64,000 nucleotides of DNA from Patescibacteria group bacterium UBA4787 (GCA_002402995.1 DHGX01000003.1:82309-146308), one strand, 5' to 3'. Positions 17,085 to 48,317 are shown, counted from the stretch's first letter. Notes: generated by a model from the letters alone, not told the origin. Numbers and translations are program-made.

Positions 17085-17184
17085 AAAGCCTTTGTCTGTG
17101 CGGATTTTCACTTCTATTCTCTACTTGCTATTTTCTACTTTCTAAATTTCTTGTAACGTTTCTGTTTTTATATCGTCTTAATAT

Positions 17185-26410: not shown

Positions 26411-27784
26411 TTATGCGCCAAAAAATTTAATTGCTCTGGCTAATTCTTCGTGATCTTTGGCGTATTCGTTAATATCTATCTTTTTCTGATATGCTTCGCA
26501 GGCCTGCAAAACGGCCATGGCGCCGGCCCTGGTGCCATCTGGATGCGCGTGTACGCCCGCGCCCATCGTGGTTATGAAATCAACCGTGCCCATGATATCA
26601 ATAATCGCTTTTAATTTTGTCGGATTAAGCCCGCCGGAAAGAATAGGTGTAGATTTTTGAATGCCACGCCATAATTCATCGTTTAAATTTAAAGAGTTTG
26701 TTTCGTCCTCGGCTTCTATACGAGCTAAATCTTTATCGGCGTGGGAAATTTTTCCCCATTTTTGGGAAAAGAAATATCCCTCGGACTTGAATTTTAAAAG
26801 CGCGTGCGAGGCGACTAAATCTTCGTCCGGACTGCCAGCCATTTTGCCGATCCCTGACGTCCCTACATGAATACCCGAAGCTCCGGCTAATCTGGCGAAT
26901 TTAGCCAAAACTAAATTAGTGAAACCAATCGGATTTTCTTCTCGGGTGAAAGCGCCGTGCATGGCGCGATGGAAGTGCAGAAACACGTCGGGATAGCGCC
27001 GTCTGATGGTTTGAACTGCCGTCCAACCAGCCGTAATTCCATCAACCAAAAAAGCATAACTGCCCGGCTCAAAAGTGTCTTTAATTAAGTCGGCTCTTTT
27101 AATCATTGCGTCAAAATCAGCAGCCGAGATATTGAAGGAATGTATTTTTTTACGTCCGGTTTCTTGGACTGCTTTATCCATTGCTTGTTTGACGTATTTA
27201 ACCATGTGTTCATAGGGGCAAAAATCTTGATCAGCTTGCGGCTCGTCGTTTTTAACGAAGTCGCCACCACCCGACCAAAAATCATAACAGACTTCCGCGT
27301 ATTGAGAAGCGGTTAAGCCCATTTTGGGTTTAATAATTGCGCCCAAGATCGGTCGATCATAAACATCTAAATATTTTCTTAAATTATCAATATTGCGGGC
27401 TGGGCCGTCGTATTGTTCTAACATTTCCGCAGGAAACCACACGTCTAAAAGTTTTAACGCCTTAGCTTCTTTCATGCCGAAAACATTGCCGACGATAAAA
27501 GTTAAGATGTTTTGAATGTTTCCGCCTCGGTCAAATAAACGCCACGGATAGGCGATCCAAACCAAATTCTTTTGTTCATCAACTTTGTAAACTAAGGCGT
27601 CTAAGGAATGGGAAAAATCAGTGGCCGTGCCTACTTCTATGTTCGAGCCGGTTGATGATTCGGCTGCCACTTCGGTGGCCGCGGATAAAAGATCGCCACT
27701 CTCCGGAACTAAGTGAAAAACGGCTAACATATATTGGCCGTTCTGCGGATTATTTAGATCTAATTTAAGATAAGCTTTTTGCAT
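26411..27784 (-). CDS. rbcL: Ribulose-1,5-bisphosphate carboxylase/oxygenase large subunit, form II/III-like (CPR/archaeal type).
   Basis: RuBisCO large-subunit motifs IKPKMGLTASQYAEVCYDFWSGGGDFVKNDEPQ (carbamylated Lys and Mg ligands present), HFHRAMHGAF, GGLNPTK. Length 457 aa. No small-subunit gene adjacent. Confidence 0.85.
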   Translation of the reverse strand: MQKAYLKLDLNNPQNGQYMLAVFHLVPESGDLLSAATEVAAESSTGSNIEVGTATDFSHSLDALVYKVDEQKNLVWIAYPWRLFDRGGNIQNILTFIVGNVFGMKEAKALKLLDVWFPAEMLEQYDGPARNIDNLRKYLDVYDRPILGAIIKPKMGLTASQYAEVCYDFWSGGGDFVKNDEPQADQDFCPYEHMVKYVKQAMDKAVQETGRKKIHSFNISAADFDAMIKRADLIKDTFEPGSYAFLVDGITAGWTAVQTIRRRYPDVFLHFHRAMHGAFTREENPIGFTNLVLAKFARLAGASGIHVGTSGIGKMAGSPDEDLVASHALLKFKSEGYFFSQKWGKISHADKDLARIEAEDETNSLNLNDELWRGIQKSTPILSGGLNPTKLKAIIDIMGTVDFITTMGAGVHAHPDGTRAGAMAVLQACEAYQKKIDINEYAKDHEELARAIKFFGA

Positions 27785-27925
27785 ACCAGGTAGTAGAAAT
27801 TTGATTAGTTTTATTATTTAATTTCATAACAAAAATAAATATTGGATTATTCATGGTCAGTATAACGTAAATTACACTTCCTTACCAGTAGAAATAAATA
27901 TATCAAATTTTCACTACCTGGCATA
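27783..27925 (-). repeat. Inverted-repeat bracket element, copy 2 (inverted). Its right-end repeat terminates in the RuBisCO start codon (ggtATG).
   Basis: On the minus strand it reads ATGCCAGGTAGTGAAAATTT...ATCAAATTTCTACTACCTGGTATG, followed by caaaaagc. The terminal ATG is the rbcL start at 27782-27784. Confidence 0.7.
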
Positions 27926-28053
27926 AATTTTATTTTTAGATTAATTTTAAGCTAATTACATTATATTATTTTTCTCAATAATATTCAACCTTGTTTTAAG
28001 TTGGCAAAAAGAGATTTCCATTGTTTAGTTTATTAAAAAATACGAAAAAATCA

Positions 28054-28108
28054 AACACCTAGAATCAAAAAAGCCAGCTAAAAGCTGACTTTTTTCTGCA
28101 AAAGGGTC
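28054..28108. repeat. Repeated terminator-like module, copy 1 (aatcaaaaaagccagc-N-gctgacttttttctgcaaaagggtcg). On the minus strand it is a stem-loop plus T-run.
   Basis: Copies also lie at 28992-29040, 29384-29445 and 39140-39208. The last abuts the 3' end of tRNA-His. Confidence 0.7.
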
Positions 28109-28117
28109 GACAAGAGA

Positions 28118-28175
28118 AATTTATTAGAACCTGTTTAAGGGGGTTGGGGGAGTGTTCGGTGGGGGAGATATGCCG
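28118..28175. repeat. About 55-nt repeat (ttattagaacctgtttaagggggttgggggagtgttcggtgggggagatat), copy 1. Copy 2 is at 37926-37978.
   Basis: Read directly. Both copies sit immediately 3' of minus-strand gene stops (doc at 28192; CYTH at 37995). Confidence 0.7.
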
Positions 28176-28191
28176 TTAAAACGCGTCCCTC

Positions 28192-28632
28192 TTAATTTTT
28201 GACCTTCCGGTCCTGCTGAAGATTAATCAGGTGAGATTTTAAAAAACGCTCAATACTCTTGATTGCCTGGTCTTTCACTTCAGATGGGCTTTGCGCTATC
28301 CAAATGGCAAAATTATAAAGCTCCTGATTGTCAACTTTCAGCCATTTTTTATTTTTATAAAGAAAATAGAACAAAGTGGTTATGGCGATTCGCTTATTGC
28401 CATTCTGAAAAGGGTGATTTTTATTTAGTAAATAAAAAAGAATAGCCGCCTTGCCGAGCAGTCCTTTATAAAGCGGCTTCTTTTGAAAGGTTTGAAAAGG
28501 CACGGCAACGCAACTCTCTAAAATATTAGGATAACGAGTCTCAAAATCGGGAATTGGCTCGTTGAAGCTCATTGATTCTCGAGCTAATTGAAAGGCAACT
28601 AATTTTATTTGTACCACATTAACGGTTTTCAT
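28192..28632 (-). CDS. doc: Doc (death-on-curing)/Fic-fold toxin of a type II toxin-antitoxin pair.
   Basis: Fic/Doc active-site motif HPFQNGNKRIA. Gene overlaps the upstream small HTH gene by 1 nt, a typical TA arrangement. Confidence 0.75.
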   Translation of the reverse strand: MKTVNVVQIKLVAFQLARESMSFNEPIPDFETRYPNILESCVAVPFQTFQKKPLYKGLLGKAAILFYLLNKNHPFQNGNKRIAITTLFYFLYKNKKWLKVDNQELYNFAIWIAQSPSEVKDQAIKSIERFLKSHLINLQQDRKVKN

Positions 28633-28889
28633 TATTCTCGGCCTAATAATTTAAGAGCTTCTCCATATTCTTTGACGGTTTTTTTGACCGCTGCGTTAAT
28701 AGTTTTTTTGTTTTCCTCGGTTAAATTTTGTCCTAAAATATGGCCCAAGTCTTTACGGTGGATAACAAAATTTCGGCCAACTTTCATGGCCTTAATTTCA
28801 CCTTTTTTTATTTTTTTAAAAACCGCCACATGGCTAACGCCTAAAATCTTGGCCAGTTCGGTCGCAGAAAAGAAGTTTTTATTTTCCAT
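28632..28889 (-). CDS. Helix-turn-helix (AlpA/excisionase-MerR-like) DNA-binding protein, the putative antitoxin/regulator for Doc.
   Basis: HTH segment SATELAKILGVSHVAVFKKIKKGEIKAMKVGRNFVI. Sits upstream of and overlapping doc. A perfect 20-bp palindrome (aggttaatatatattaacct, 28917-28936) in its promoter region is a likely autoregulatory operator. Confidence 0.65.
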   Translation of the reverse strand: MENKNFFSATELAKILGVSHVAVFKKIKKGEIKAMKVGRNFVIHRKDLGHILGQNLTEENKKTINAAVKKTVKEYGEALKLLGRE

Positions 28890-29106
28890 AAATTTCTATA
28901 TTAACTGACTAAAGATAGGTTAATATATATTAACCTATTAGTCAATGGTTAATATGTGGATAAATAAACGTAAATTCACTATCGACCGCCAATACGTCAA
29001 AATCAAAAAAGCCAGCCATGGGCTGACTCTTCTGTAAAAAAATGGCAAGAAAACTGATATGAAAAAAGACGAGCTTATTATCGCTCGTCTTCAATTTTTG
29101 ACGCAC

Positions 29107-29307
29107 TTACAAGAGGAATTTTTCCAGGTTAACTTTTTCGACTATTTTCCCGTTCTTGTCGATTGTGGCCAGTTTTCCCTGAGAGGCCAGTTGTACGAAA
29201 GCGAGTGCGGTCACGAAAATGGCTTTTTCCGTAAACCCCTTTTTCTTCAGCTCGTTGATGAACTCTTGTGCTCCATCATCGAACGTCATGGTAATGGTGG
29301 GCGGCAT
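29107..29307 (-). CDS. Small hypothetical protein (66 aa).
   Basis: More protein-like than the overlapping 100-aa + strand ORF. Function unknown. Confidence 0.35.
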   Translation of the reverse strand: MPPTITMTFDDGAQEFINELKKKGFTEKAIFVTALAFVQLASQGKLATIDKNGKIVEKVNLEKFLL

Positions 29308-29460
29308 TTGGGAACTCCTTTGTTTTATTTGTTGTTCAATGAACTTAATTCGGTTAAATAAATCTTAATAAAAAAATCGTTTTTTGTCAAGATGATAAAA
29401 TCAAAAAAGCCAGCTATTAGCTGACTCTTCTGTAAAAGGGTCGTATCGCTGCCGAGATGT

Positions 29461-29652
29461 ATGAATTTCACAGATCAAAAAATAAAAGAATTTAATGCGG
29501 CAACAACCGAGGTAGCCCGGCAGAACGACCTCATTTTAGTTGATTTGTATAAAGTGCTTAGTTCAGAAGAAACAAGCGATTATGATTGTCTCCACCCCAA
29601 TATTGCCGGCCAAGAGAAAATAGCGCAAGAATTTATAGAGAATTTGCGATAA
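29461..29652 (+). pseudogene. C-terminal fragment of an SGNH/GDSL-hydrolase (catalytic Asp-x-x-His block DCLHPN).
   Basis: The 63-aa ORF carries only the C-terminal SGNH block V (YDCLHPNIAGQEKIAQEF). No N-terminal GDS(L) block is present, so this is probably a gene remnant in an accessory patch. Confidence 0.45.
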
Positions 29653-29738
29653 AAATACAAAATTTATTTTATTTTTTACTTGATAAATTCTCATTATAGA
29701 CTATAATAATTATTAATTGAAAGAATAAAAATTTAATC

Positions 29739-31403
29739 ATGGAACTCGAAGAGCTAAAAAAATTGTTGAATAAAGAGAAGGGCATTGAAAAGCTTGATTT
29801 TATCGCCATTCAAGAAGAGGCAGAATATAAAGGCGAGAGTATTGAAGATTTACTGATAGAAAAAAATTTAATTTCTTCTAGACAATTAGGAGGGTTAATC
29901 GCTCAAAAATTTAAAGTCCCTTTTGTTGATTTAAAAACCGAACCTATTTCCGAAGAAGTTCTTCGGATTATTCCTGAGGTCGTGGCCAGAAATCGACAAA
30001 TTGTCGCTTTTGCTCGAGATAAAAATGGCTTGAAAGTGGCCATGGCTCATCCGGACGATTTAGAAATGATTCAATGGCTTGAGAAAAAAACTGGCGAGAA
30101 AATTATGCCTTTTTATAGTTATTTGGGTCAGATTAAAGAAGCGCTAGATTATTATAAAAAAGAATTAAAAGTTGCTTTTGAAGAAATTATTAAGAATCAG
30201 ATTGAAGAAGCTAAAGATAAGGCGCCCGAAAGCCCCCCTATCATAAAACTAGTGGATACTTTACTCGAATACGGTTATATAAACCGGGCTTCGGATATTC
30301 ATATTGAACCAGAAGAAACAAAAACAGATGTCCGATTTAGAATAGACGGAGTTTTACATCAAGTGCTTACGTTCGATAAAGATATCCACCGATTAGTAAT
30401 CGCCAGAATAAAAATATTGTCTAATCTCCATACCGACGAACATTTTATCCCCCAAGACGGTAAATTCGGAGTTAAATATGATGGGGAAAAATTTGGAATC
30501 AGAGTTTCTGTTATCCCTGTTACTCATGGAGAAAAAGTAGTTATGCGACTTTTAGCAGAAAGGACTAGGCAATTCAACTTAGGTAACTTAGGACTCTCTC
30601 CGGCAGATTTTAAAATTGTTGAAACTAACATCAAGAAACCCTGGGGCATGATTTTATCAACTGGCCCTACGGGTTGTGGAAAAACCACCACTTTATACAC
30701 TATTTTAAAACTACTTAACAAATCAGGAGTTAACATCACTACCATTGAAGACCCTATAGAATATGATATGGCCGGGATTAATCAAATACAGGTCAACCCT
30801 AAAGCAGGGCTCACTTTCGCTGCCGGTTTGCGTTCTATCGTTCGACAGGATCCGAACATTATCATGGTTGGAGAAATCAGAGACACAGAAACCGCCTCTA
30901 TCGCTGTAAACTCGGCCATGACTGGTCATTTAGTGCTCTCTACCCTCCACACCAATAATGCCGCTACTACTTTGCCCAGGCTTATAGACATGGGAATCGA
31001 ACCATTTTTAGTTGCTTCCTCGACTAATATTATTATCGGCCAGCGATTGGTGCGAAAAATTTGTCCAAAATGCAGCCAAACATATTCTATCAAGCTAACA
31101 GAACTCGGCGAACTCCAGGACATAATGACCCAAAAAGCGAAAGGAAAAACAGAAATCATGCTCTCTCGGGGTCATGGTTGTCCGCTTTGTGGACACACTG
31201 GATATATAGGAAGAATCGGTATTTTCGAAATACTGCAAGTTGAAAAAAATATTCAAAATTTAATTACCAAACAAGCCGACGCAGGAGAAATTCAAGCCGC
31301 AGCTATAAAAAACGGAATGACGACTATGCTTGAAGATGGTATTTCGAAAATGCTCGCAGGCATTACCACGTTAGAAGAAATTTTAAGAGTGATTAGAGAG
31401 TAA
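29739..31403 (+). CDS. pilB: Type IV pilus assembly ATPase PilB (GspE family).
   Basis: N-terminal GSPII_E_N-like domain. Walker A GPTGCGKTTTLY. Asp/His boxes. Tetracysteine motif CPKC...CPLCGHTGYIGRIG. Confidence 0.9.
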   Translation: MELEELKKLLNKEKGIEKLDFIAIQEEAEYKGESIEDLLIEKNLISSRQLGGLIAQKFKVPFVDLKTEPISEEVLRIIPEVVARNRQIVAFARDKNGLKVAMAHPDDLEMIQWLEKKTGEKIMPFYSYLGQIKEALDYYKKELKVAFEEIIKNQIEEAKDKAPESPPIIKLVDTLLEYGYINRASDIHIEPEETKTDVRFRIDGVLHQVLTFDKDIHRLVIARIKILSNLHTDEHFIPQDGKFGVKYDGEKFGIRVSVIPVTHGEKVVMRLLAERTRQFNLGNLGLSPADFKIVETNIKKPWGMILSTGPTGCGKTTTLYTILKLLNKSGVNITTIEDPIEYDMAGINQIQVNPKAGLTFAAGLRSIVRQDPNIIMVGEIRDTETASIAVNSAMTGHLVLSTLHTNNAATTLPRLIDMGIEPFLVASSTNIIIGQRLVRKICPKCSQTYSIKLTELGELQDIMTQKAKGKTEIMLSRGHGCPLCGHTGYIGRIGIFEILQVEKNIQNLITKQADAGEIQAAAIKNGMTTMLEDGISKMLAGITTLEEILRVIRE

Positions 31404-31405
31404 AT

Positions 31406-32455
31406 ATGAATATCTTCAAACGAGTAACTCTTTTAGAGAAAATTATTGCCGTTAAACACCTTTCGCTTATGATTAGGTCCGGGTTAACACTCTCGGCTGG
31501 CTTTAAAATTTTAGAGCAGCAAGCGCGAGGGTATTTTAAAGAAGTGCTTTGGGCAATTATGGCCCGCATGCAAGAAGGACAAACTTTAGCTGAAAGCTTG
31601 GCAAAATTTCCTCATATATTCCAGCCCATTTTTTTAAATTTAATTAAAGTTGGAGAAAAATCAGGTACCTTAGAAAAAACCCTTTCTTATCTATCTGAAT
31701 ATTTAGAGAAAAGTATGGTTTTACGCAGAAAAATACGCGGGGCCATGCTTTACCCAGTCTTTACTTTGATAATAGCCGTTGGAGTCGGATTATCGGTGGC
31801 TATTTTTATCTTACCGAGACTGACCCAAGTTTTTACCAGCTTAAATGTCAAACTTCCTGTTGCTACCAGAATTCTATTGTTTCTAGCCAGATTTTTTGAA
31901 AGTTATGGTCTCTGGGTATTCTTCGGCATTTTAATATTAATTGGAACACTTATCTGGCTTAGTCAACAAAAATTCGCGAAACCATATTTTCATAAATTAA
32001 TCTTACATTTGCCCCTAATAGGACGGATTTCTCGCGATCATAACTTAGCTATTTTTACCAGAATTCTAGGCACGCTTCTTAAAAGTGGATTATCTATAAA
32101 AGAGAGCCTTGAGATTACTTCTGAGAGCACTGATAATTTTGTTTATGGTAGATATGTCAAATCTCTAATCGGTCTGGTTGAGCAGGGAAAAACTTTGTCC
32201 AGCGGTCTTCAAGATAATTTTCTCTTTCCTGGAATAGCAGTTCAAATAATTGAAATTGGCGAAGAAACCGGCAGTTTGGAAGAATCTCTTTTATATTTGA
32301 CTCAATTCTATGAGGAAGAGGTCAGTTATGCCAGCGAAAATTTATCCACTGCTTTAGAGCCGATACTCCTTATTATTATTGGTATAGTTGTCGCCTTTGT
32401 GGCTTTGGCTATTATCACCCCTATTTATCAAATAACCGCTGGTATGAATATCTAG
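31406..32455 (+). CDS. pilC: Type IV pilus platform protein PilC (GspF family).
   Basis: Two GspF-type repeats and three TM segments, immediately downstream of pilB. Confidence 0.85.
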   Translation: MNIFKRVTLLEKIIAVKHLSLMIRSGLTLSAGFKILEQQARGYFKEVLWAIMARMQEGQTLAESLAKFPHIFQPIFLNLIKVGEKSGTLEKTLSYLSEYLEKSMVLRRKIRGAMLYPVFTLIIAVGVGLSVAIFILPRLTQVFTSLNVKLPVATRILLFLARFFESYGLWVFFGILILIGTLIWLSQQKFAKPYFHKLILHLPLIGRISRDHNLAIFTRILGTLLKSGLSIKESLEITSESTDNFVYGRYVKSLIGLVEQGKTLSSGLQDNFLFPGIAVQIIEIGEETGSLEESLLYLTQFYEEEVSYASENLSTALEPILLIIIGIVVAFVALAIITPIYQITAGMNI

Positions 32456-32550
32456 TAGGTGAATAAAGAGTATCAAATTTTGTATTTATTTGCTCGACCG
32501 AAAAAACAAATTTATTCGCTTCTCTTTCGCTTGTTCACAAATAAACAATT

Positions 32551-33012
32551 ATGAAAATTAGAGCTTTTACTTTAATCGAAACCCTTTTGTTCGTTGTCGG
32601 ATTTAGTATTTTAATTGTGATAGCCTTTCCTGTTTTGCGTCTTCTTTTGACGGCGAATTATCTTAACATCGCAACTACGGAAATAGTCCAAAGTTTACGC
32701 CAGGCTCAAACTAGTGCTATAAATGGCGCCGGAGACAGCAGGTGGGGCGTTTTTTTTGATACAAGCAATAATAAATTTATTTTTTTTAAGGGCGATAATT
32801 TTTTGAATCGAATTCAGTCATATGATTTGGCGACAGAATTGCCCAAATCAGTCGTATTTAAAAATATTAATTTGAATGGAGGTGGGAGCGAGATAGTGTT
32901 TGAAAAAATAAGCGGTCAAATTAATCAATATGGATCTCTGTCTATTTCGGGATTAAATCATGAAACAAAAAACATTGTCATTAATGAATATGGATCAATA
33001 GAAATAGAATGA
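32551..33012 (+). CDS. Pseudopilin/minor pilin with a class III signal (AFTLIETLL).
   Basis: N-terminal MKIRAFTLIETLLFVVGFSILI matches the prepilin cleavage/methylation motif (G/A)FTLIE. Confidence 0.7.
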   Translation: MKIRAFTLIETLLFVVGFSILIVIAFPVLRLLLTANYLNIATTEIVQSLRQAQTSAINGAGDSRWGVFFDTSNNKFIFFKGDNFLNRIQSYDLATELPKSVVFKNINLNGGGSEIVFEKISGQINQYGSLSISGLNHETKNIVINEYGSIEIE

Positions 33013-34346
33013 AGATAAACAAAAAAGCGCAAATATTAATAGAAATTTCGATTGGGATGGGGTTGTTCGCCATGATAGCCGCCGCTCTTATAACTTTGAC
33101 TATTGGCTCATACCAATCCAATATTCAAACTGCGAAAGAAACTAAGGCCAGCCATTTGGCTAGCGAAGGAATAGAGGCAGCGCAAGCTATTAAGAATTAT
33201 AATTGGGAAAATTTGGCGAATGGTTCTCATGGATTGACTTATGTCAATGGTTTTTGGGAAATTCAGGACTCTTCTCCCGAAAATATTGGCCCCTACACTA
33301 GAGAAATTATTGTCGAATCTCTGTCTCGCCAGAATAATTTTTGCGGTTCACTTCAAGGGCAAGGTGTAATTGACCCCGACATTAAGAAGGTGATTTCAAA
33401 AATAACCTGGCAATCTGCTCCGTCCAAATCTAGAACCATAGAATTGGTTTCTTATTTTAGTAATTGGGCGAATCCCGAAGAAACTAAATGTTCAAAATGC
33501 GAATTATACGAGATATCTTCTGTCGTGGAGTTTGATGCAAGCGCCGTCCTGGATTGGTCGGGCAAAGATGTCGTTATTAAACTAAACGGACACTTAAAGG
33601 CTGATTCTAAAAATAACCCCATTACTTTAACCATCAATACTGATTGCAGTTTAATTATTGAAGACGGAGGTAAAATAACAGCCGAAGGCAGTTCGTCAAA
33701 TGGTAATGGAGGAGTTATTAATATTACCGCACCCGAGGTAAATATAGCCGGAACAATTTCGACTAATGGTTATTCTTCACAGCCAACAGGATTATTAGCC
33801 AATGGCGGTTTAATTAATATAGAGACAACCGATCTGGGCATATCAATTAGCGGTAAAATGAGATCCTGGGGATATACTTTTTCATCAAATATAAATAGTC
33901 TTGGTGGAACAATTAATGTTAAGACAACAGATTTCAACCATCAAGGCGAAATTTCTGTTAATGCTTTAAATGTGCCAAATGCTAACGACAAACCAGATGC
34001 CGGAACAATTAATATTGAGTGTCAAGACTTCGTGAATAGCGGAGGAATTAGTGCAGATACTTATGGCAAGCAAGGGCACGGTGGCATTATAAATATTAAG
34101 ACTGTGAACAATAGTTCTTCCAGTAATACTAATATCACCGCTGATAGCCGGGGGACTGCCGGATCAGCGCATGGTGGCCAAATTTATTTTACGGCCAATC
34201 AGTTGAATATTTTGAACAGCAATGTTTCTGCCATGGATATAGAAAATAATAGAAAACCAGGAATCACCGCTTTAATTTATTGTCAAAAAAATTTCACCGG
34301 CACTACTTTTAATCCTCAGCCAGGAGAAACAATATTATGTCCTTAA
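33009..34346 (+). CDS. Pilus-associated protein with a pilin-like hydrophobic N-terminus and a parallel beta-helix-like repeat body; putative tip adhesin.
   Basis: N-terminal QILIEISIGMGLFAMIAAALITL. Repeats of the GG(V/L/T)INI...G(T/I)IS type. Translationally coupled to the preceding pseudopilin (4-nt overlap). Confidence 0.55.
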   Translation: MKINKKAQILIEISIGMGLFAMIAAALITLTIGSYQSNIQTAKETKASHLASEGIEAAQAIKNYNWENLANGSHGLTYVNGFWEIQDSSPENIGPYTREIIVESLSRQNNFCGSLQGQGVIDPDIKKVISKITWQSAPSKSRTIELVSYFSNWANPEETKCSKCELYEISSVVEFDASAVLDWSGKDVVIKLNGHLKADSKNNPITLTINTDCSLIIEDGGKITAEGSSSNGNGGVINITAPEVNIAGTISTNGYSSQPTGLLANGGLINIETTDLGISISGKMRSWGYTFSSNINSLGGTINVKTTDFNHQGEISVNALNVPNANDKPDAGTINIECQDFVNSGGISADTYGKQGHGGIINIKTVNNSSSSNTNITADSRGTAGSAHGGQIYFTANQLNILNSNVSAMDIENNRKPGITALIYCQKNFTGTTFNPQPGETILCP

Positions 34347-34375
34347 GCAAAAATCAACTATTCAAAATATAAAAC

Positions 34376-34969
34376 ATGGAAAATAACGATATAATAAAAT
34401 TTAAATCAATCCAAGATTCCGGGTTCAAAGTTCTAAATTTCAATAAAGGATTTACTCTTATAGAATTGATTATTTATACGGCCTTAGTAGGTTTAATAGC
34501 TGTGGCTGTTATTGGTTTTGCCTGGAATATTATCAATGCCCGAATTAAAAATGAGGCTTACCAAGAAGTAGAACAAAATCTGCGTTTTGGGATGGAGAAA
34601 ATCACTCAAGCAATTCGAGAGGCAGATGATATTTCTACTACAGATTCCGTCTTTAATGTTTCGCCGGGCAAACTTACTCTTAAATATCCAAACAAAGATA
34701 TGATTTTTGACGTATCCGCCAAGATTATTAATATCGGTGGGCAGGATGTAGAAATTCATAAACTAAGGATTAAAGACGGGAACAATGATTCTAAAGATTT
34801 AACTTCTAATAAGGTCGATATAATCAATTTCACATTGACTAATTTAACTCGCGGTTCTGAACCCAAAAATATTAAAATTGATTTAACCATAAAACATGTT
34901 AATCCTACCCAAAATCTTAAATGGGCAGCTGAAATTTTTTCCGAAACGGCTGCCTCTATTAGAAAATAG
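34376..34969 (+). CDS. Type IV pilin-like protein (prepilin motif KGFTLIELII) with a long leader.
   Basis: GFTLIELIIYTALVGLIAVAVIG prepilin N-terminal domain. Confidence 0.7.
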   Translation: MENNDIIKFKSIQDSGFKVLNFNKGFTLIELIIYTALVGLIAVAVIGFAWNIINARIKNEAYQEVEQNLRFGMEKITQAIREADDISTTDSVFNVSPGKLTLKYPNKDMIFDVSAKIINIGGQDVEIHKLRIKDGNNDSKDLTSNKVDIINFTLTNLTRGSEPKNIKIDLTIKHVNPTQNLKWAAEIFSETAASIRK

Positions 34970-34970
34970 T

Positions 34971-35375
34971 ATGCGAATAACATGCTACGAATGCGCACCG
35001 GCGAATAATTCTAAAAATAGAGCAGCCACCCTGCTGATAATGATTTTAATTATTAGCGCTATTACTCTGGCTATTACCTTGAGCGTTGCTTTAACGGGCA
35101 TAGGTCAGATGCGGATGGGCGTCGGTTATTTCCAGTCTACGAAAGCGCTGGATTGTGCTAAAGCGTGTATGGATGAGGCATTGCTCCAGCTTATTCGAAG
35201 TTCTGATTACAGTGGCGGGAACTTGATTTTAGACGACGGAGATTGTAATATTAATATAAATAGATCCGGCCCGAATCCAATTATCACCGCAATTGGCAAT
35301 TTTAAAGAATTTACTAAAAAAATAACAGTCGAACTTGATTTGACTAATAAAAAAATTTTAACTTGGCAGGAATAA
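34971..35375 (+). CDS. Minor pilin/pseudopilin-like protein (PilX/GspK-like N-terminus).
   Basis: Hydrophobic N-terminal helix RAATLLIMILIISAITLAITLSVALTGIG. Start set at the ATG at 34971 to avoid overlap. Lies inside the pilus operon. Confidence 0.5.
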   Translation: MRITCYECAPANNSKNRAATLLIMILIISAITLAITLSVALTGIGQMRMGVGYFQSTKALDCAKACMDEALLQLIRSSDYSGGNLILDDGDCNININRSGPNPIITAIGNFKEFTKKITVELDLTNKKILTWQE

Positions 35376-35387
35376 ACCCCGACGATC

Positions 35388-36659
35388 ATGGGACTCTTTA
35401 CCGGACAATCAATCTTTGGCCTAGATATCTCCGACTATTCTGTCGAGTGTCTTTTGCTTGCCAAAAAAATAGGGAAACTCGGCGTTAAATCATATTCCCG
35501 ACTTACATCGGCTGCAAATATCGTCGAAAATGGCGTGATTCTAGACAAAAAATTTTTAGCCGAAAAAATAGTTGAGACTCGGATAAAAGCTAGACCGAGA
35601 AGAATCGCTTCTAAAAAGGTAATCCTTTCTTTGCCTGAATCAAAAACCTTTATTCATCTTTTTAAGTCTACCGAGATTCCCGGTGGTCCCGAAATTAAAA
35701 AAGGGATAATCTCTGAGGCTTCCAGGATCATCCCCTTAGACTTACAAGAAACTTATAATGATTTTGTCGTTTATAAAAATGGCGATGTACTTTTCGCGGC
35801 TGTCAGTAAAAAGATTGTAGATGATTATATAGAAGTTATGAAAGAGGCCAAACTTGAGTTGGTGGCCATAGATCTGGAATCGTTAAGCATAGGAAGAGCC
35901 TTGTTTTTTGAAGGCGGAGATTTAAAGGAAAACGTCATGGTGGTCGATATCGGGAGCAGAACCACCGATATAAGCATTTTTAATAAATTAGGCGAGCTAC
36001 AAATATCAGCCACTATCAATATCGCTGGTAATAAATTTACTCAAGCCATTGCCGAAGAATTGGGAAGTGATTTTGAAGGAGCTGAAAAATTGAAAACAAC
36101 CCATGGTCTTGATGAAAACGGCGACAAACGAGTGTTCGAAGTTCTCAAAAAACAATTTTCACCAATTATAGAAAAGATTAAAGACCTTACGGAATATTAT
36201 CAGGAAAAGATTCCAGTTCAAAACGGATCAACTTCTAACATAGAAAAAATTCTGTTAGTGGGGGGGTCCGCGAAGATGCCAGAAATTGCTTCTCATTTTT
36301 CAAAAAATTTAAACATAAGGACTGAATTAGGAAGATCAAAAGTCGCCGAACAGATTAAAGAATTTGCTCCTTGCGAAAGTATTGTAGGACTGGCCCTAAG
36401 AAGCTTGCAAGATAACCCAGTCAGAGCAGGAATTAATCTCCTGCCGTCAATTTGCCAGAAAAAATCATTTTTTAGAGCATTGCTTGAAAGAAAAATAAAA
36501 CTCTGGGTTGCCCTTACCCTTTTAATCGTAGAGGCTCTTTTCCTTGTGATCGGGTTCATGGTTATAATTGACCGATTTGACAATTTAATACAAGGCATTA
36601 AAATAAGTAAATACAATGGAGTAGTAATGACTCCACAAAAGGTCGTTTTGAATAAATAA
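35388..36659 (+). CDS. pilM: Type IV pilus assembly protein PilM (actin-like ATPase fold) with a C-terminal TM tail that is PilN-like.
   Basis: PilM N-terminus FGLDISDYSVECLLL. Actin-like fold motifs DIGSRTTDISIF and LVGGSAKMPEI. C-terminal TM segment LWVALTLLIVEALFLVIGFMVII. Confidence 0.75.
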   Translation: MGLFTGQSIFGLDISDYSVECLLLAKKIGKLGVKSYSRLTSAANIVENGVILDKKFLAEKIVETRIKARPRRIASKKVILSLPESKTFIHLFKSTEIPGGPEIKKGIISEASRIIPLDLQETYNDFVVYKNGDVLFAAVSKKIVDDYIEVMKEAKLELVAIDLESLSIGRALFFEGGDLKENVMVVDIGSRTTDISIFNKLGELQISATINIAGNKFTQAIAEELGSDFEGAEKLKTTHGLDENGDKRVFEVLKKQFSPIIEKIKDLTEYYQEKIPVQNGSTSNIEKILLVGGSAKMPEIASHFSKNLNIRTELGRSKVAEQIKEFAPCESIVGLALRSLQDNPVRAGINLLPSICQKKSFFRALLERKIKLWVALTLLIVEALFLVIGFMVIIDRFDNLIQGIKISKYNGVVMTPQKVVLNK

Positions 36660-36679
36660 TATAAAAAACATTTATAACT

Positions 36680-37183
36680 ATGAATTTAAAGAAAAATAGA
36701 GCTGGCTTTACCATGGTAGAACTTATTATTGTGATAGCTATTATTGCTATTTTGGCTGGCATTGTTTTTGTGGCTATTAATCCGGCCAAGCGTTTTGGCG
36801 AAGCTCGGGATAGTAGGCGCTGGACAGATGTCTCAAATCTGCTTGACGCAATTCTCAAATATCAGGTGGATAATGGAGGCAATCTTCCCGTTGGTGTACC
36901 AGCCGCTGATGGCCTTAATTATCTAATTGGTAATGGTGACTGTGTTATTGCTGGTGTCACTTGCAACGAAGGAGCTACCATTTTGACTGGTTGTAAGAAT
37001 CTTACTGAAGTCACGGTTCCTCCTACGAGTATCGTTCCTGATTATATTGGTTCGATCCCTACGGACTTAAAAGGTGGAACAGCTGCCCAAACTCTTTATT
37101 ATATTTCTCGGAGTACCGCTGATAGAATCACTATCGGTGCCTGCACTCCAGAATATACCAAACCTATTTCTGTCACCCGTTAA
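36680..37183 (+). CDS. pilA: Type IV pilin; likely the major pilin.
   Basis: Class III signal MNLKKNRAGFTMVELIIVIAIIAILAGI (cleavage G|FTMVE). Size of 167 aa is typical of a major pilin. Confidence 0.75.
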   Translation: MNLKKNRAGFTMVELIIVIAIIAILAGIVFVAINPAKRFGEARDSRRWTDVSNLLDAILKYQVDNGGNLPVGVPAADGLNYLIGNGDCVIAGVTCNEGATILTGCKNLTEVTVPPTSIVPDYIGSIPTDLKGGTAAQTLYYISRSTADRITIGACTPEYTKPISVTR

Positions 37184-37459
37184 TCTTTTTTCGCTCCGTT
37201 ATAAAAATATTCTGCTTAAAAAATAGACAATTTTCTTAAAAAAGTTTAAGGAATATGTTCTAAATTTTGGCAAGATAAAAAAGCGAAACTTTTCCCGCGT
37301 GGGATTAAAAGTTTCGCTTTTTTGATTCGGACAGAAATATCGGACAGAAACAATAGAGACTTTTATTCTTAATAGATTTAGGCGCAATTTTCAAAAAGAC
37401 AATGATTGAAAAATTATGTTTTTGTGTTACAACAGATATAGAATTATATTTGAAATTTT

Positions 37460-37930
37460 ATGTCTCAAATGAGAAAAAATATTATTATCGCAGTTTGTAT
37501 TATCGGGATTTGCATTACCGTGATTTTAATATGCGGAATTACCACCGAGATGTATGACAGAAAGTTAAAAGAGCAAGAAGAACAAATAAGTGAAATATCG
37601 TCTAAAATGATAAAATACAATAAGGCCGACGAATCCTTTTATATAACGGCAAATCAGGTATTGAATCTCGCCCAAAGAGCAGCCGAATTGTTTGAAAGTT
37701 CTGAACCCGAAGAAAAACGCCAACTCTTGAATTTCGCATTTCAGAACTTCCGGTTAAACGGCAAAAACCTTTCATTTAAACTAAAAACACCCCTCGACGG
37801 GGTGCTTATAGGCACTACTACTAACAATTGGGGTCGTATCGTGGAGGACGTTAGAACTATATTTGCACAACAAGATGAATATATCTACATACCGGACTTG
37901 AGATCAGAGGCGACAATAGAAATTTATTAG
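37460..37930 (+). CDS. Hypothetical membrane-anchored protein.
   Basis: N-terminal TM segment IIIAVCIIGICITVILICGI. No identifiable domain. Confidence 0.45.
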   Translation: MSQMRKNIIIAVCIIGICITVILICGITTEMYDRKLKEQEEQISEISSKMIKYNKADESFYITANQVLNLAQRAAELFESSEPEEKRQLLNFAFQNFRLNGKNLSFKLKTPLDGVLIGTTTNNWGRIVEDVRTIFAQQDEYIYIPDLRSEATIEIY

Positions 37931-37994
37931 AACCTGTTTAAGGAGGTTGGGGGAGTGTTTGACGGGGGACGATATTAGGCTCTGCTTGAACGAA

Positions 37995-38582
37995 CTACTT
38001 CTTATTTCTTAAAAATGGATTTTTTTTACCAAAAACAATTTCTGGCGTTTGGTTATTTATTACATCCTTAGAAATATTGTATTTTTTGTCATAAAGAGTG
38101 TCGACGGAACAGAATAATGCATTTGTATAATTAAAGCTTAATTTTTCGGCGATTGCTTTAACCTTTTTCTCCGATTTACCTTCAATCTCAACAAACGGCT
38201 CTAAAAATGGCCATTCATCAATTGTTATCTCTACTCCGCTTAATATCCATAATTCTCTTTTATTTTCCTGATAGGCTTTCTTTCTACAACCAATTTTAAT
38301 AAGGAAATCTTTGGTTTCTTTAAAATTATTTACTTTTAAGCAAATTTCTTTTTGGTCTTTTATCTTTTTGCCATCAACTATTTTTAAACTCATCGTTATT
38401 TTATCGCCCTCATCTCTTGCTCTCACCCATCCACCCGGAACCTCATGACCTTTCGGTAAATTGAAAACTACTCTCTTTTGTAGAAACTCTGGTTTAACTA
38501 ATTTTGCCCCGATTTTCTTTAGTTTCTTGCGGATTTCGTTTTTATCAATATTAGCGAAAGTTGCTTCGTATTCTATTTTCAT
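37995..38582 (-). CDS. CYTH-domain protein (CyaB/thiamine-triphosphatase-like triphosphate tunnel metalloenzyme).
   Basis: N-terminal MKIEYEATF...IRKKL (EXE motif) is typical of CYTH. I moved the start to the internal Met (about 38582), because the track start at 38642 would run through a terminator hairpin. Confidence 0.6.
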   Translation of the reverse strand: MKIEYEATFANIDKNEIRKKLKKIGAKLVKPEFLQKRVVFNLPKGHEVPGGWVRARDEGDKITMSLKIVDGKKIKDQKEICLKVNNFKETKDFLIKIGCRKKAYQENKRELWILSGVEITIDEWPFLEPFVEIEGKSEKKVKAIAEKLSFNYTNALFCSVDTLYDKKYNISKDVINNQTPEIVFGKKNPFLRNKK

Positions 38583-38636
38583 ATATTTTATTCTACTAAA
38601 AAATTTATTTTTGCCAAGATCATGAGAAACAAGAAA

Positions 38637-38667
38637 GGACACAGATTTTTCTCTGTGTCCTTTTTTG
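38637..38667. terminator. Conserved terminator hairpin ggacacag-(loop)-ctgtgtcc plus T-run, copy 1 of 3 (others at 47722-47754 and 53031-53059).
   Basis: The same 8-bp stem sequence appears at all three sites, each immediately 3' of a minus-strand small gene. Confidence 0.7.
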
Positions 38668-38691
38668 AACTTAGCACTTTCTCGCCTTGGT

Positions 38692-39063
38692 TTATAAATT
38701 CAAGTTTTCTAGTTTCACCCAGATGATCGCTCCGGCGGGATGCTGATAGGGTATCGGCTTGGAAAATAAAACAGGATTCTTTAGAGTCCAAGCAAAGGTT
38801 TTTTTGTAGGGCAATCTCTGCTCTAACGCACTAGCCGGTATCTGGTGTTTGTCGACACTTGCCTTCATCTGCGATAGGTCTAACGGTCCCATCACATCCA
38901 CCAGCTCACAGGTACCAATAACAAGCCCTGAACCGCTACGAATCAAAGCGATTCGACCGCGGATATTCGTGCTCGAGCCACGGATCTCCCAGGTTTTGGA
39001 ACCGCTAAAGATTTTATCGATCCATGGCGTGCGAATTAATAAACCGCGCAAAATGTTTGACAT
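38692..39063 (-). CDS. ASCH (PUA-like) domain protein.
   Basis: ASCH signature SGSKTWEIRGSSTNIRGRIALI and a beta-barrel-like remainder. Confidence 0.6.
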   Translation of the reverse strand: MSNILRGLLIRTPWIDKIFSGSKTWEIRGSSTNIRGRIALIRSGSGLVIGTCELVDVMGPLDLSQMKASVDKHQIPASALEQRLPYKKTFAWTLKNPVLFSKPIPYQHPAGAIIWVKLENLNL

Positions 39064-39194
39064 GTTTATCTCCCATTATTAAATTTTATTTCAATGAACT
39101 AGGTTTAGCTATAAATAAAATATATCAAAAAATCATTTTTTGTCAAGATGATAAAATCAAAAAAGCCAGCTTTTGGCTGACTCTTCTGTAAAAG

Positions 39195-39267
39195 GGTGGC
39201 TAACGGGATTTGCACCCGTGCTGAAGGTTCCACAGACCTCCGTGCTAACTATTACACCATAGCCACC
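39195..39267 (-). tRNA. tRNA-His, anticodon GTG, with the extra 5' G(-1).
   Basis: Minus strand reads G-GTGGCTA-TG-GTGT-AATAGTTA-GCAC-G-GAGGT-CTGTGGA-ACCTT-CAGC-ACGGG-TGCAAAT-CCCGT-TAGCCAC-C. G(-1) pairs with the C73 discriminator, as characteristic of tRNA-His. The T-loop is slightly atypical. Confidence 0.7.
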
Positions 39268-39274
39268 ATAAAAA

Positions 39275-39349
39275 TGGTACCCCCAAGAGGAATCGAACCT
39301 CTATTACCAGCTTAGAAGGCTGATGCTCTATCCGTTGAGCTATGGGGGC
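39275..39349 (-). tRNA. tRNA-Arg, anticodon TCT, with encoded CCA.
   Basis: Minus strand reads GCCCCCA-TA-GCTC-AACGGATA-GAGC-A-TCAGC-CTTCTAA-GCTGG-TAAT-AGAGG-TTCGATT-CCTCT-TGGGGGT-A-CCA. Confidence 0.85.
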
Positions 39350-39350
39350 G

Positions 39351-40244
39351 TTACATCATTTTTCGAAGAGCAACAATTCTTTCTTCAATGGGTGGATGCG
39401 TGTTGAATAATTTCATCAAAGAGTTTCGCTTGGAACCGAAAGGATTACTGATATATAAATGAGCGGTCGCGTTTGAAGCTCGTTGCAAAGGCTGATTTTC
39501 CAACTTTATTTTTTCCAGGGCATTGGCTAGGCCAGTAGGGTAACGAGTTAATAGAGTGCCAGAAGCGTCAGCCAAAAATTCTCTTTTGCGGGAAATCGCC
39601 AATTTAATAAGTTGAGCGATTAACGGAGCCAGAATTATTAAAATTAAACCGATAATCATTAATATTCCGTTAACGCCGCCGTCCTTTTGGCTGCGGCTTC
39701 GTCCCCCGCCAAAAAATAATCCGCGAGAAAACCAATTGGACAGCAAGATAGCCGTGCCGACCAAAATAACGACCAATGTCATCAAGCGGATATCAAAATT
39801 TTTAATATGCGATAATTCATGAGCGATCACACCTTCTAATTCTTCGTTTTCCAATTTTTCGATCGCGCCGGTAGTAATAGCGATAGAAGCATGCTTTGGG
39901 TCGCGCCCAGCGGCAAAAGCGTTAATTGCGCCATCGTTTATAAGATAAACTTGGGGCGTGGGCAGGCCGGCAGTAATGCATAAATTTTCAATCATTCTAT
40001 AAACATACGGGTTGTCGTTTTTTTCTATTTTTTTCGCGCCAGCCGTAGTCAAGGCGATTTTATCGCCTGAATAATAACCGACCAACGACATCCCGATAGA
40101 AATAATCACAGCTATAATCAATCCATTATAACCATAATTGGTTAATTTTCCGAACAGCCAGCCCAAAAGCAAGATTATCATCACGAAAACAAAAATCAGA
40201 ATAAAACTTTTTCTTTTATTGCTATCAATTTGCGAATAAAGCAT
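39351..40244 (-). CDS. htpX: Zinc metalloprotease HtpX (M48 family).
   Basis: HEXXH motif IAHELSHIKNFD, N-terminal TM helices, and the typical pairing with lemA. Confidence 0.85.
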   Translation of the reverse strand: MLYSQIDSNKRKSFILIFVFVMIILLLGWLFGKLTNYGYNGLIIAVIISIGMSLVGYYSGDKIALTTAGAKKIEKNDNPYVYRMIENLCITAGLPTPQVYLINDGAINAFAAGRDPKHASIAITTGAIEKLENEELEGVIAHELSHIKNFDIRLMTLVVILVGTAILLSNWFSRGLFFGGGRSRSQKDGGVNGILMIIGLILIILAPLIAQLIKLAISRKREFLADASGTLLTRYPTGLANALEKIKLENQPLQRASNATAHLYISNPFGSKRNSLMKLFNTHPPIEERIVALRKMM

Positions 40245-40285
40245 ATATTAGAAAATAGAAAGTAGAAAGTAGAAAATAGAATAGG

Positions 40286-40979: not shown

Positions 40980-41903
40980 CTATTTTCTTTTTTTGTCGTG
41001 AAACTTCCCGTAGATTTCTCTTAAGTGTTGATCGGTAATGTGCGTATAGATCTGGGTAGTGGTGATTGAGGCGTGCCCCAACATACTTTGAACCGATCTC
41101 AGGTCAGCTCCGCCGGCCAGCAAGTCCGTGGCAAAAGTGTGGCGCAAGGTATGCGTGGTGATTTTTTTGGTAATACCGGCGATGCGGCTATATCTTTTTA
41201 CTAGTCTTTGGATGCTACGCGGAGTTAAGCCTTTTTCTTGGTCTTTTTTCCCGGCGCGGTCGTGGCGGACAAAAAGATAGGGACAGGTATCGCTTCGTCC
41301 GTCTAAATATTTTTTAAGCCAATACTTGGCTTGATTAGAAAGAAAAACCACGCGCCACTTACTGCCCTTGCCAAGCACAGCGAATTCGTCTTTTTGTAAA
41401 TTAACGTCGTCAATTTTTAGGCTAGCTATTTCAGAGACGCGCGTACCGGTAGAAAACAGCAATTCAATAAGAGCTTTATCGCGAGTTTTGATAATTTCCG
41501 GCTCCTTGCTGTCCAAAGGAGCTTGGAGGAAATTTTCTAACTCTTTGCCTTCTAAGAAGAAAATTTGTCGTTCGCCGGTTTTGGCTAGTTCAATTTTTTC
41601 CGGCGCGAGAGACGGCACATCGTTTTTTGCCAGCCAACGCAAAAAGGTGCGCATGGCGATAAGGTGGTAATTCTGGGTGGATGGGCTGATAAACCCGCCA
41701 CGCGGATTATTTTGACGCGAAAGCCAAAGGCGAAATTGGCGAATTTTATCCAAAGTAATTTCTTGGGGCTTATCTATTCGCGCCCAAGCAAAAAATCTTT
41801 TCAGATAAAAACTATAATTGCGGCTGGTTAGGGGAGAACGGCCTTTTTCAATTTCTACATACTCAAGAAATTCCGTGAGTAATTGTGATAGATCTTTAGC
41901 CAT
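40980..41903 (-). CDS. xerC: Site-specific tyrosine recombinase XerC/XerD.
   Basis: C-terminal catalytic region TTHTLRHTFATDLLAGGADLRSVQSMLGHASITTTQIYTH (R-H-R-Y residues). N-terminal SAM-like domain. Start set at the internal MAKDLSQ (41903) rather than the track start at 41960. Confidence 0.8.
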   Translation of the reverse strand: MAKDLSQLLTEFLEYVEIEKGRSPLTSRNYSFYLKRFFAWARIDKPQEITLDKIRQFRLWLSRQNNPRGGFISPSTQNYHLIAMRTFLRWLAKNDVPSLAPEKIELAKTGERQIFFLEGKELENFLQAPLDSKEPEIIKTRDKALIELLFSTGTRVSEIASLKIDDVNLQKDEFAVLGKGSKWRVVFLSNQAKYWLKKYLDGRSDTCPYLFVRHDRAGKKDQEKGLTPRSIQRLVKRYSRIAGITKKITTHTLRHTFATDLLAGGADLRSVQSMLGHASITTTQIYTHITDQHLREIYGKFHDKKRK

Positions 41904-42030
41904 AATTATTTCATTATACGACACATAGCTTGAATAGTCAATTAAATTAGATCTTGACAAAACTTCAAAGATCTGCTATAATCTACATAATGATTCAGTT
42001 CTTTAATATAATTTCTATAAGGAAAAAAGA

Positions 42031-42875: not shown

Positions 42876-42884
42876 ATTTATATA

Positions 42885-47435: not shown

Positions 47436-47453
47436 ATCTCGAAGCGAGAAGCA

Positions 47454-48311: not shown

Positions 48312-48317
48312 ACTTCT

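Follow-up and report, generated by a model that had tools for sequence, protein, structure and literature searches.

Between a RuBisCO gene and a tRNA-Arg/tRNA-His pair of Patescibacteria group bacterium UBA4787, an intact type IV pilus operon is flanked by two repeat-rich patches. The locus lies in a stretch of 64,000 nucleotides (nt) (GCA_002402995.1 DHGX01000003.1:82309-146308), here called the window, in which positions are counted from the first letter. We consider it likely that positions 27993 to 39197 constitute a decayed mosaic island, derived from integrative elements of the large serine recombinase (LSR) type, for which the point where the 3' end of tRNA-His meets that tRNA's own terminator would have served as attachment (att) site attB. 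As far as the sequence allows us to judge, nothing at the locus is mobile now. A sequence-only reading had previously described two patches around an intact operon that share two repeat families, and had proposed a degraded integrative-element island at tRNA-His. The former was borne out by four copies of a hairpin module and two copies of a 64-nt element, the latter by an integrase remnant, the logic of the att junctions, and the variable content of the same interval in a related genome (L047).

A recombinase remnant and its junctions at tRNA-His

For the open reading frame (ORF) at 37460-37930, initially read as an orphan membrane protein, a word-index search gave 41 short homologs. A profile made from 18 of these 41 sequences and searched against 1.84 billion proteins matched 4980 of them; in proteins of 492 to 539 amino acids (aa), the match covered positions ~370-500 (E 1e-33 to 1e-43), i.e., the C-terminal coiled-coil/tail region. 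Since full-length (~500-aa) homologs (P0058, P0064, P0083, P0113, and P0146) carry Resolvase, Recombinase, and Zn_ribbon_recom domains, these proteins are LSRs. Three longer homologs also match the PHROG family phrog_95 "integrase" (positions 428-580 of 651; E 1e-8 to 1e-5), to which the window ORF itself shows a marginal match (E 0.0019), and no NCBIfam family was found for the stub. In a tblastn comparison of six full-length LSRs with the window, only 37535-37860 was matched (residues ~383-500), and the Resolvase catalytic, Recombinase, and Zn-ribbon domains were absent. Because the Resolvase domain, with its active-site serine, is missing, the window copy is a remnant rather than a functional member of the family. 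The first 26 codons of the ORF (its "membrane" part) correspond to the beginning of the pilin-downstream gene of L062, a contig from the same sampling site as the L047 relative, where this gene runs for at least 193 codons; the homology ends at 37538. The supposed membrane protein is thus a chimera of a native signal/transmembrane (TM) segment and a C-terminal LSR stub of ~130 residues. The integrase that had been expected outside the window is therefore represented inside it, as a remnant at 37539-37930, and it is of the serine type, not of the tyrosine type usual at tRNAs.

The first repeat family, the module AATCAAAAAAGCCAGC-N5-GCTGAC, was found at 28063, 29001, 29399, and 39155, in all cases on the plus strand and within 11 kb (the coordinates of the sequence-only reading fall 9 to 15 nt upstream of these pattern cores). 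The remaining 53 kb of the window contained no further copy, and none was found in 100 dinucleotide-preserving shuffles (0 expected; all counts refer to the window). Copies 3 and 4 are identical at 71 of 74 positions (95.8%); in all copies, the 5-nt loop varies, while stem and flanks are conserved. On the minus strand, which also carries the flanking genes and both tRNAs, the module reads ACCC-UUUUACAGAAGAGUCAGC-loop-GCUGGCUUUUUUGAUUUU and is predicted to fold into a 13- to 14-bp hairpin followed by a U-rich stretch (dG of -15 to -19.5 kcal/mol; z of -2.7 to -5.6), as expected of an intrinsic (Rho-independent) terminator; a consensus scan flagged it as terminator-like as well. We therefore describe the module as the predicted trailer and intrinsic terminator directly 3' of tRNA-His. 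TTGACA-N16/17 promoter-like sites trail copies 3 and 4 and face the 66-aa ORF and the ASCH gene, respectively. For the minus-strand genes, the copies probably remain in use as terminators and promoters.

The copies had been taken for att-like duplicates of the tRNA 3' end. However, alignment showed that module and tRNA-His have only GGGT in common (ACCC in the sense of the tRNA: the last two acceptor-stem bases, the discriminator C73, and one trailer base), and the "CG" that follows GGGT in other copies is not tRNA sequence. Since the overlap amounts to these 4 nt, the module is not a duplicated tRNA 3' end, and the direct repeats that duplicate a 3' part of the tRNA in many tRNA islands are missing here; what was copied is the downstream terminator/promoter, fused to the integrase tail.

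The second family was represented by a 36-nt pattern at 28121 and 37924 (2 matches, 0 expected). The shared element, previously put at 55 nt, is real and occurs twice, but it extends to 64 nt (28103-28166 versus 37906-37969; 89% identity), covering the last codons of the LSR gene, the stop codon, and ~36 nt beyond. L047 has kept the complete LSR tail behind an internal module copy (tblastn with P0016), and in the metagenome contig L052, the 64-nt element is inverted beside a second module copy. We accordingly identify the module as the B arm of attB and the 64-nt repeat as the P' arm of attP.

Aligned with each other, all four junction types meet at GGGT (slashes mark the point of exchange). 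The attB site, joining module and tRNA-His, reads ...ctgtaaaagggt/ggctaacggg (copy 4 of the window and L047), and attP, in the LSR stub of the window, reads ...aacaattggggt/cgtatcgtggagg. Junctions of the attL type, joining module and LSR tail, are seen at copy 3 (...aaaagggt/cgtatcg...), at copy 1 (...aaaagggt/cgacaag...), and at the internal module copy of L047 (...gaagggt/cccttatggg...). Finally, the attR type, joining LSR and tRNA-His, was found in L058 (...aactggggt/ggctaatggg); LSR remnants are joined to tRNA-His at TGGGGT/GGCTA both there and in L066, which carries a tRNA-His/tRNA-Arg(tct) pair like that of the window. As attP sits within the last ~35 codons of the LSR gene and the attR state is seen in other genomes, the gene would come to lie antisense against the tRNA after integration. 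Indeed, most full-length members examined end, past a conserved ...NW, in translated antisense tRNA (e.g., WLPGxDSNP or RQDSNL). The LSR of L057 runs on into tRNA-Gln, where TGG is the reverse complement of the encoded CCA, and P0002 and P0043 end in NWGG followed by a stop, the translated junction of LSR and tRNA-His. The window stub retains the tail NWGRIVEDVRTIF...YIPDLR, common to P0003 to P0005, and represents the unrecombined state.

In summary, we propose that a crossover within the tetranucleotide GGGT, between the module-tRNA-His boundary and the site in the LSR tail, would set the LSR gene antisense to the tRNA (attR) and displace the terminator to the opposite end of the element, where it is joined to the LSR tail (attL). 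Repeated rounds of integration could then have produced the three extra terminator copies, the two LSR-tail copies, and small cargo units built as [LSR tail - genes - promoter - module], which carry Doc/HTH, the 66-aa ORF, and CYTH plus ASCH. Homologous exchange between the 45- to 74-nt module copies may have contributed, as may circles of the attL type, inserted by the LSR or captured at attR or attB. Subsequently, the recombinase would have decayed to its 130-codon C-terminal stub, and an illegitimate junction would have joined this stub to the pilin-downstream gene, bringing the intact pilus operon into the island. Module copy 1 seems to be the original terminator, displaced by 11 kb, because the sequence beyond it resembles what lies downstream of the module in L052 and L054; it is probably the B arm of the original attB, now 11.1 kb from tRNA-His.

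Several observations weigh against this reconstruction. The window lacks a catalytic LSR domain, activity at the locus being deduced from other genomes; it also lacks an attR junction, and tRNA-His retains an intact attB. Since one attB, one attP, and two attL sites without attR cannot come from one canonical LSR integration, additional, unobserved steps are needed. Serine integrases normally create no long repeats, and the module copies measure 45 to 74 nt although canonical LSR recombination leaves no long direct repeats. Copy 2 lacks a recognizable junction, and copy 3 retains just 7 to 23 nt of LSR-like sequence, which is also in-frame SGNH coding sequence. The GC content of the island (0.35 to 0.39, versus 0.30 to 0.48 across the window) is not atypical, as it often is in genomic islands, and, with two related genomes available for comparison, it is not certain which location of the pilus operon is the original one.

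Alternative origins

Homologous recombination as the main builder of the island seems unlikely to us. The module would then be a conserved tRNA terminator/promoter, its copies would provide portable homology at which DNA acquired by a presumably competent host becomes inserted, duplicated, or exchanged, and the LSR remnant would be mere cargo. Consistent with this, copies 3 and 4 are near-identical direct repeats that enclose one 9.76-kb unit, attB is intact at tRNA-His, the module trails other tRNAs in relatives too, and long repeats are not a normal LSR product. However, homologous exchange does not predict that, at copies 1 and 3 and at the internal copy of L047, the module ends exactly where the tRNA would begin and gives way to LSR sequence. 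The reciprocal LSR-tRNA-His junction is present in L058 and L066. We see it best as a complementary second step rather than as an alternative origin.

A second candidate, very unlikely in our view, is the Xer-like tyrosine recombinase encoded at 40980-41960 (minus strand), of which the repeats would be the att sites. It has a Phage_integrase domain (E 2e-43) with SAM-like N-terminal domains and lies 1.6 kb from tRNA-Arg/tRNA-His; yet it matches XerC/XerD/XerA models best, over their full length (E 1e-70; the XerA cut-off is exceeded), the gene is 5' of the tRNAs and outside the variable interval, with HtpX and LemA in between, and the junction partners are LSR sequences. Moreover, tyrosine integrases typically duplicate a tRNA 3' segment of 15 to 60 nt, and the repeats contain no such segment. 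This protein is probably the chromosome dimer resolvase.

It is highly improbable that the locus has no mobile-element history at all, with the modules being convergent generic terminators and the 64-nt repeat a chance or regulatory duplication. The sequence-only reading had named, as one outcome that would overturn it, a generic terminator present at dozens of unrelated loci across the genome. A scan of 185,579 species genomes for the core TCAAAAAAGCCAGC-N-GCTGACT returned 46 loci; most belong to unrelated organisms, among them Streptococcus, Paenibacillus, and Lachnospiraceae, from which we conclude that its shape is that of a generic terminator. The extended module, in turn, occurs in the Patescibacteria metagenome-assembled genome H41-bin211_1 after tRNA-His (L047), after tRNA-Asn (L009), and abutting a tRNA 3' fragment (L041/L054); in L052, it follows tRNA-Asn, with a second copy 970 nt downstream. 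A metagenome scan for the module gave 4 loci, and scans of viral contigs for the module and the 64-nt element gave none. The hairpin thus appears to be a lineage-wide tRNA terminator and not specific to the island. A purely generic reading is nevertheless contradicted by the 71/74-nt identity, which reaches past the stem, by the presence of four copies in 11 kb and none in the other 53 kb, by the fusion of module copies to recombinase-tail sequence, by the identity of the 64-nt repeat with the end of the LSR ORF, and by the difference in the interval between relatives.

Lastly, although short-read Logan contigs end solely within module copies (3 and 4), the chance that the junctions are assembly chimeras at short repeats is practically negligible, given that the repeats are below typical read length and that a 72.8-kb ENA contig and several Logan assemblies from independent runs (SRR1313281-7) show identical junctions at 100% identity to the window. 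The pilin-chimera-CYTH-ASCH order was also found in one ENA and three independent Logan assemblies. With identical junctions in these assemblies and breaks confined to module copies, the order of segments is real.

Two further observations concern tRNA-related scars and terminators. In the H41 relative (L054 7460-7690), a 26-nt tRNA 3' fragment (ttcgaatcccatccggggag) without tRNA body lies directly against a module copy, and in the same region, a tRNA-Leu 3' fragment is duplicated ~80 nt from the full tRNA-Leu(tag), with a GC-rich insert in between; these fragments point to further att-type scars at other tRNAs. A second terminator family, AAAGGACACAGA-loop-TCTGTGTCCTTT, serves several unrelated genes in the window (38634-38663, 47722-47752, and 53019-53049) and is kept in the relative (L047 5806-5835). 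This genome seems to use near-identical terminators over and over.

The pilus operon, related genomes, and island layout

Alignment with related genomes, which the sequence-only reading had put forward as a check, showed that the interval between RuBisCO and tRNA-His differs in L047, a member of the same clade (93% aa identity in RuBisCO). There, a 172-aa gene and RuBisCO are followed by 4.3 kb of different genes (encoding a 247-aa protein, a coiled-coil protein, a 68-aa Gly-zipper protein, and a 302-aa lipoprotein), then by the module, tRNA-His, and tRNA-Arg; the pilus operon is absent from this interval. The corresponding interval in the window measures 11.2 kb, which is the variable content expected of an island at a tRNA 3' end, and homology to L047 picks up again to the left of 27993-28062. 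The array of L047 can be written as M - o - [tail, 64 nt, 302-aa gene, promoter, M] - o - tRNA-His, where M is a module copy and o a GGGT junction. Read from RuBisCO, the window has M1 - o - [tail (deleted), 64 nt, Doc, HTH, M2] - [66-aa ORF, promoter, M3] - o - LSR (23 nt) / SGNH', pilus operon, TM' / LSR stub - o - [tail, 64 nt, CYTH, ASCH, promoter, M4] - o - tRNA-His, so that units of the form [LSR tail ... promoter-module] directly adjoin the tRNA in both.

The pilus operon was rightly called intact: Pfam supports its genes, and all eight match those of a relative in length. In L062 (PilB 91% identical), colinearity with the window is confined to the operon and the 26 codons that follow it; its neighbors differ, and the downstream gene is not truncated. 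In a more distant relative (PilB 77%), it lies between cysS on one side and uppS-tmk-rplA on the other. In the window, the operon is bounded on the left by a 5'-truncated SGNH gene and on the right by the 3'-truncated gene fused to the LSR stub. We read the arrangement in the window as derived, with the operon, or the DNA around it, apparently joined to the island debris by illegitimate recombination. Thus, of the earlier proposal that the pilus cluster or its flanks lie within, or were rearranged by, an integrative element at tRNA-His, the rearranged flanks stand, whereas, given its context in L062, the operon is better regarded as relocated core DNA and not as classical cargo. The missing 3' part of the pilin-downstream gene, expected as the reciprocal product if the rearrangement was LSR-mediated, was not found in the window organism, homologs (62 to 66% identical) coming from other samples only.

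The gene calls in the table below are supported by Pfam (Fic/Doc, HTH_17, the GDSL fragment, PilB, PilC, PilM, N_methyl pilins, CYTH, and ASCH), in agreement with the identities assigned before. Doc and the small overlapping gene upstream of it form a toxin-antitoxin pair, the antitoxin being of the helix-turn-helix (HTH) type and not Phd/YefM. Rfam, applied to the whole window at the gathering threshold and to the left patch in E-value mode, returned just three tRNAs and chance matches, the repeats having no Rfam family. The remainder of the window is housekeeping in nature (S6, SSB, EF-P, IleRS, PNPase, RF, GlmS, and HrcA-GrpE-DnaK-DnaJ).

Features of the island between RuBisCO and tRNA-Arg, in window coordinates
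Feature	Position	Strand	Remarks
RuBisCO-side sequence beyond copy 1	27993..28062	-	Original terminator-downstream DNA; homologous to promoter region after module-tRNA-Asn (L052) and after tRNA fragment (L054)
Module copy 1 (M1)	28063..28107	-	Hairpin; GGGT/CG junction at 28107/28108
LSR tail remnant, P' arm	28108..28166	+	Last ~8 recombinase codons, stop, and ~36 nt downstream; left copy of 64-nt repeat; remainder of tail lost through internal deletion
Doc (Fic/DOC) toxin	28192-28632	-	Pfam Fic/DOC, E 1e-10; cargo of cassette 1
HTH antitoxin, 85 aa	28632-28889	-	HTH_17, E 5e-8; upstream of Doc, sharing base 28632; cargo of cassette 1
Module copy 2 (M2)	28999..29039	-	Hairpin intact; GGGT junction lost
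66-aa ORF	29107..29307	-	No family match; own terminator at 29065-29092; promoter-like TTGACA-N17-TAAGAT at 29390-29362
Module copy 3 (M3)	29368..29441	-	Terminator plus promoter part; junction at 29441/29442
LSR-like stretch of 23 nt, CGTATCGCTGCCGAGATGTATGA	29442..29464	+	18/23 match to LSR internal codons R-I-T-T-E-M-Y-D; also in SGNH frame; origin ambiguous
SGNH/GDSL hydrolase, C-terminal fragment	29461..29652	+	5'-truncated; GDSL profile positions 124-177 of 178
Type IV pilus operon plus 26 codons of native downstream gene	29725..37538	+	Colinear with L062 over exactly this span
pilB	29739-31403	+	
pilC, then four pilin-like/unknown genes		+	
pilM	35388-36659	+	
Pilin	36680-37183	+	Followed by pilin terminator
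LSR C-terminal remnant	37539..37930	+	Residues ~383-500 of full-length enzymes; attP core GGGT at 37831-37834, unrecombined
Right copy of 64-nt repeat	37906..37969	+	LSR ORF end, stop, and downstream flank (P' arm)
CYTH protein	37995-38642	-	Pfam; cargo of tRNA-proximal cassette
Terminator	38634-38663	-	Member of AAAGGACACAGA-loop-TCTGTGTCCTTT terminator family
ASCH protein	38692-39063	-	Pfam; cargo of tRNA-proximal cassette
Module copy 4 (M4)	39124..39197	-	Terminator of tRNA-Arg/tRNA-His unit plus TTGACA-N16-TATATT promoter for ASCH; B arm of intact attB
tRNA-His(gtg)	39194-39266	-	ARAGORN and Rfam; 3' end is B' arm of attB
tRNA-Arg(tct)	39275-39349	-	ARAGORN and Rfam

Next to copy 3, an 11-mer (GGGTCGTATCG) and a 13-mer (CCGAGATGTATGA) were considered as two separate pieces of the LSR tail and, alternatively, as a target-site duplication around the pilus segment. 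Both options were rejected, since the 23 nt in question are colinear with the LSR codons G-R-I-T-T-E-M-Y-D and also lie in the SGNH frame.

Beside the island, at 26411-27784 (minus strand), the RuBisCO large subunit has N-terminal and catalytic RuBisCO domains; presumably, it resembles the RuBisCO-like enzymes reported from bacteria of the candidate phyla radiation (CPR). Exactly at its start codon, a copy of an element resembling a miniature inverted-repeat transposable element (terminal inverted repeats ATACCRGGTAGTAGAAATTYGAT ... ATCRAATTTTCACTACCYGGCAT) occupies 27785-27925 and regenerates CAT/ATG; L047 reads gcat/aaattttattt at this point, without insertion. Further copies are located at 17181-17324, 42880-43216, and 55779-55925. 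Paired GC-rich palindromes similar to repetitive extragenic palindromic sequences (CTACCCCGAACC..GGTTCGGGGTAG, then TAGCCCAGCACC..GGTGCTGGGCTA) are found in intergenic regions at 1874-1953, 48246-48317, and 60216-60295, and in L062 at 1348-1427, just upstream of the pilus operon of the relative. Tandem heptamer tracts (TTCTACT/TTTCTAC and TTTACGC types) occur in many intergenic regions on both strands (4462-4529, 7114-7147, 9221-9300, 16437-16474, 18317-18368, 40238-40279, 53930-53963, and 61599-61646). A 145-nt direct repeat (97% identity) follows the PNPase and GlmS genes, at 47441-47585 and 52781-52925, 5.3 kb apart. Lastly, in the region 2595-2810, a tRNA-like 5' half (GCGCCTCTATAGCTCAATGGATAGAGCGCCGGTCTCC) stands before tRNA-Arg(tcg) (2645-2718), and palindromic, GC-rich sequence with a stretch resembling a T arm comes after it. 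When run with its intron search, ARAGORN called one tRNA only, giving no split tRNA around tRNA-Arg(tcg), and the tRNA-like pieces may be further tRNA-fragment scars.

The integrase family and its wider behavior

Several features recall prophages and integrative elements with LSRs (e.g., phiC31, Bxb1, A118, and SCCmec Ccr). The full-length homologs combine Resolvase, Recombinase, Zn-ribbon, and coiled-coil parts; the hybrid junctions fall at a very short common core, attP lies beside or overlaps the integrase gene, and the target is the very 3' terminus of a conserved gene, comparable to rlmH for SCCmec. Unlike those elements, this family targets tRNA 3' termini (His, Gln, and others), its attP lies in the last ~35 codons of the enzyme, such that the C-terminal tail is exchanged on integration, and the locus keeps a dead stub only. 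tRNA 3' ends are usually the territory of tyrosine integrases, and characterized LSRs mostly target protein-coding genes; a literature search for serine integrases at tRNA genes in Patescibacteria returned nothing. With the tRNA islands of tyrosine integrases (P4-like elements, integrative and conjugative elements, and pathogenicity islands), the locus shares its position beside a tRNA, variable content, a toxin-antitoxin pair, gene fragments, direct repeats that mark successive insertions, and a decayed integrase. It differs from them in that its repeats are the downstream terminator rather than a 3' segment of the tRNA, in the serine class of the enzyme, and in the absence of a compositional signature. 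Archaeal integrases of the SSV1 type also have an ORF that overlaps its own attachment site and tRNA-related sequence, and their integration likewise alters the int ORF and leaves int fragments beside tRNA genes. However, these are tyrosine enzymes, split near the N terminus, that recombine within the tRNA body, whereas here the last ~35 codons are swapped, with crossover at the tRNA end.

Among the listed profile matches (P0001-P0186), C-terminal LSR fragments far outnumber full-length genes. In a set of 172 fragments, each representing one 50%-identity cluster, LSR homology starts at columns 380 to 399 of the hidden Markov model in 92 cases; the motif ITTDMYD starts at column 391, as does the homology of the window stub. 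In about 30 of these, unrelated N-terminal sequence of 16 to 331 residues is fused at that start point. In DNA, five loci (window 37538, L055 4707, L056 6022, L060 8249, and L066 ~8002) have their break within ~9 nt of the G-R-I-T codons, each with a different upstream partner. The LSR ORF holds two similar "G-R-I" sites, one internal (DG/RITTDMYD) and one in the tail (WG/RIVEDVRT), the internal DG-RIT(T)D resembling the WG-RIV(E)D of the tail. The recurrent start point could reflect a second internal recombination site, a microhomology-driven deletion, or a domain-sized stub that is retained, and free C-terminal stubs could be kept for some function, e.g., blocking incoming integrases.

On the basis of the two "G-R-I" sites, and of the [LSR tail - genes - promoter - terminator] units that stand against the tRNA in both genomes examined, one might speculate that the family runs cassette arrays at tRNA 3' ends in the manner of integrons, with attL-type circles being captured on the tRNA-proximal side and host operons such as the pilus genes being picked up; at present, we find this idea rather doubtful. 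Tandem units of small, unrelated genes, a repeated structured site between them, and growth from one fixed end would be in line with it. In contrast to integrons, the locus has no IntI, attI, or attC (the sole tyrosine recombinase is of the Xer type, with the integron-integrase model far below its cut-off), each unit has its own promoter, and the repeated site is a terminator.

The locus is best described as a fossil genomic island and not as a new kind of system; the wider behavior of its integrase family is the part worth pursuing. In the CPR lifestyle, a central role is ascribed to the type IV pilus operon, and its position varies within the clade (three contexts in three genomes), being situated amid island debris here. 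The findings indicate that streamlined genomes of Patescibacteria (CPR) carry decayed integrative elements, and that a serine integrase family that is widespread in metagenomes (with the number of profile matches given above) lands at tRNA 3' termini. They also account for one group of small ORFs, labeled "hypothetical" or "membrane," which are integrase stubs, and the readable attB/attP pairs may be mined as new pairs of serine integrases and att sites.

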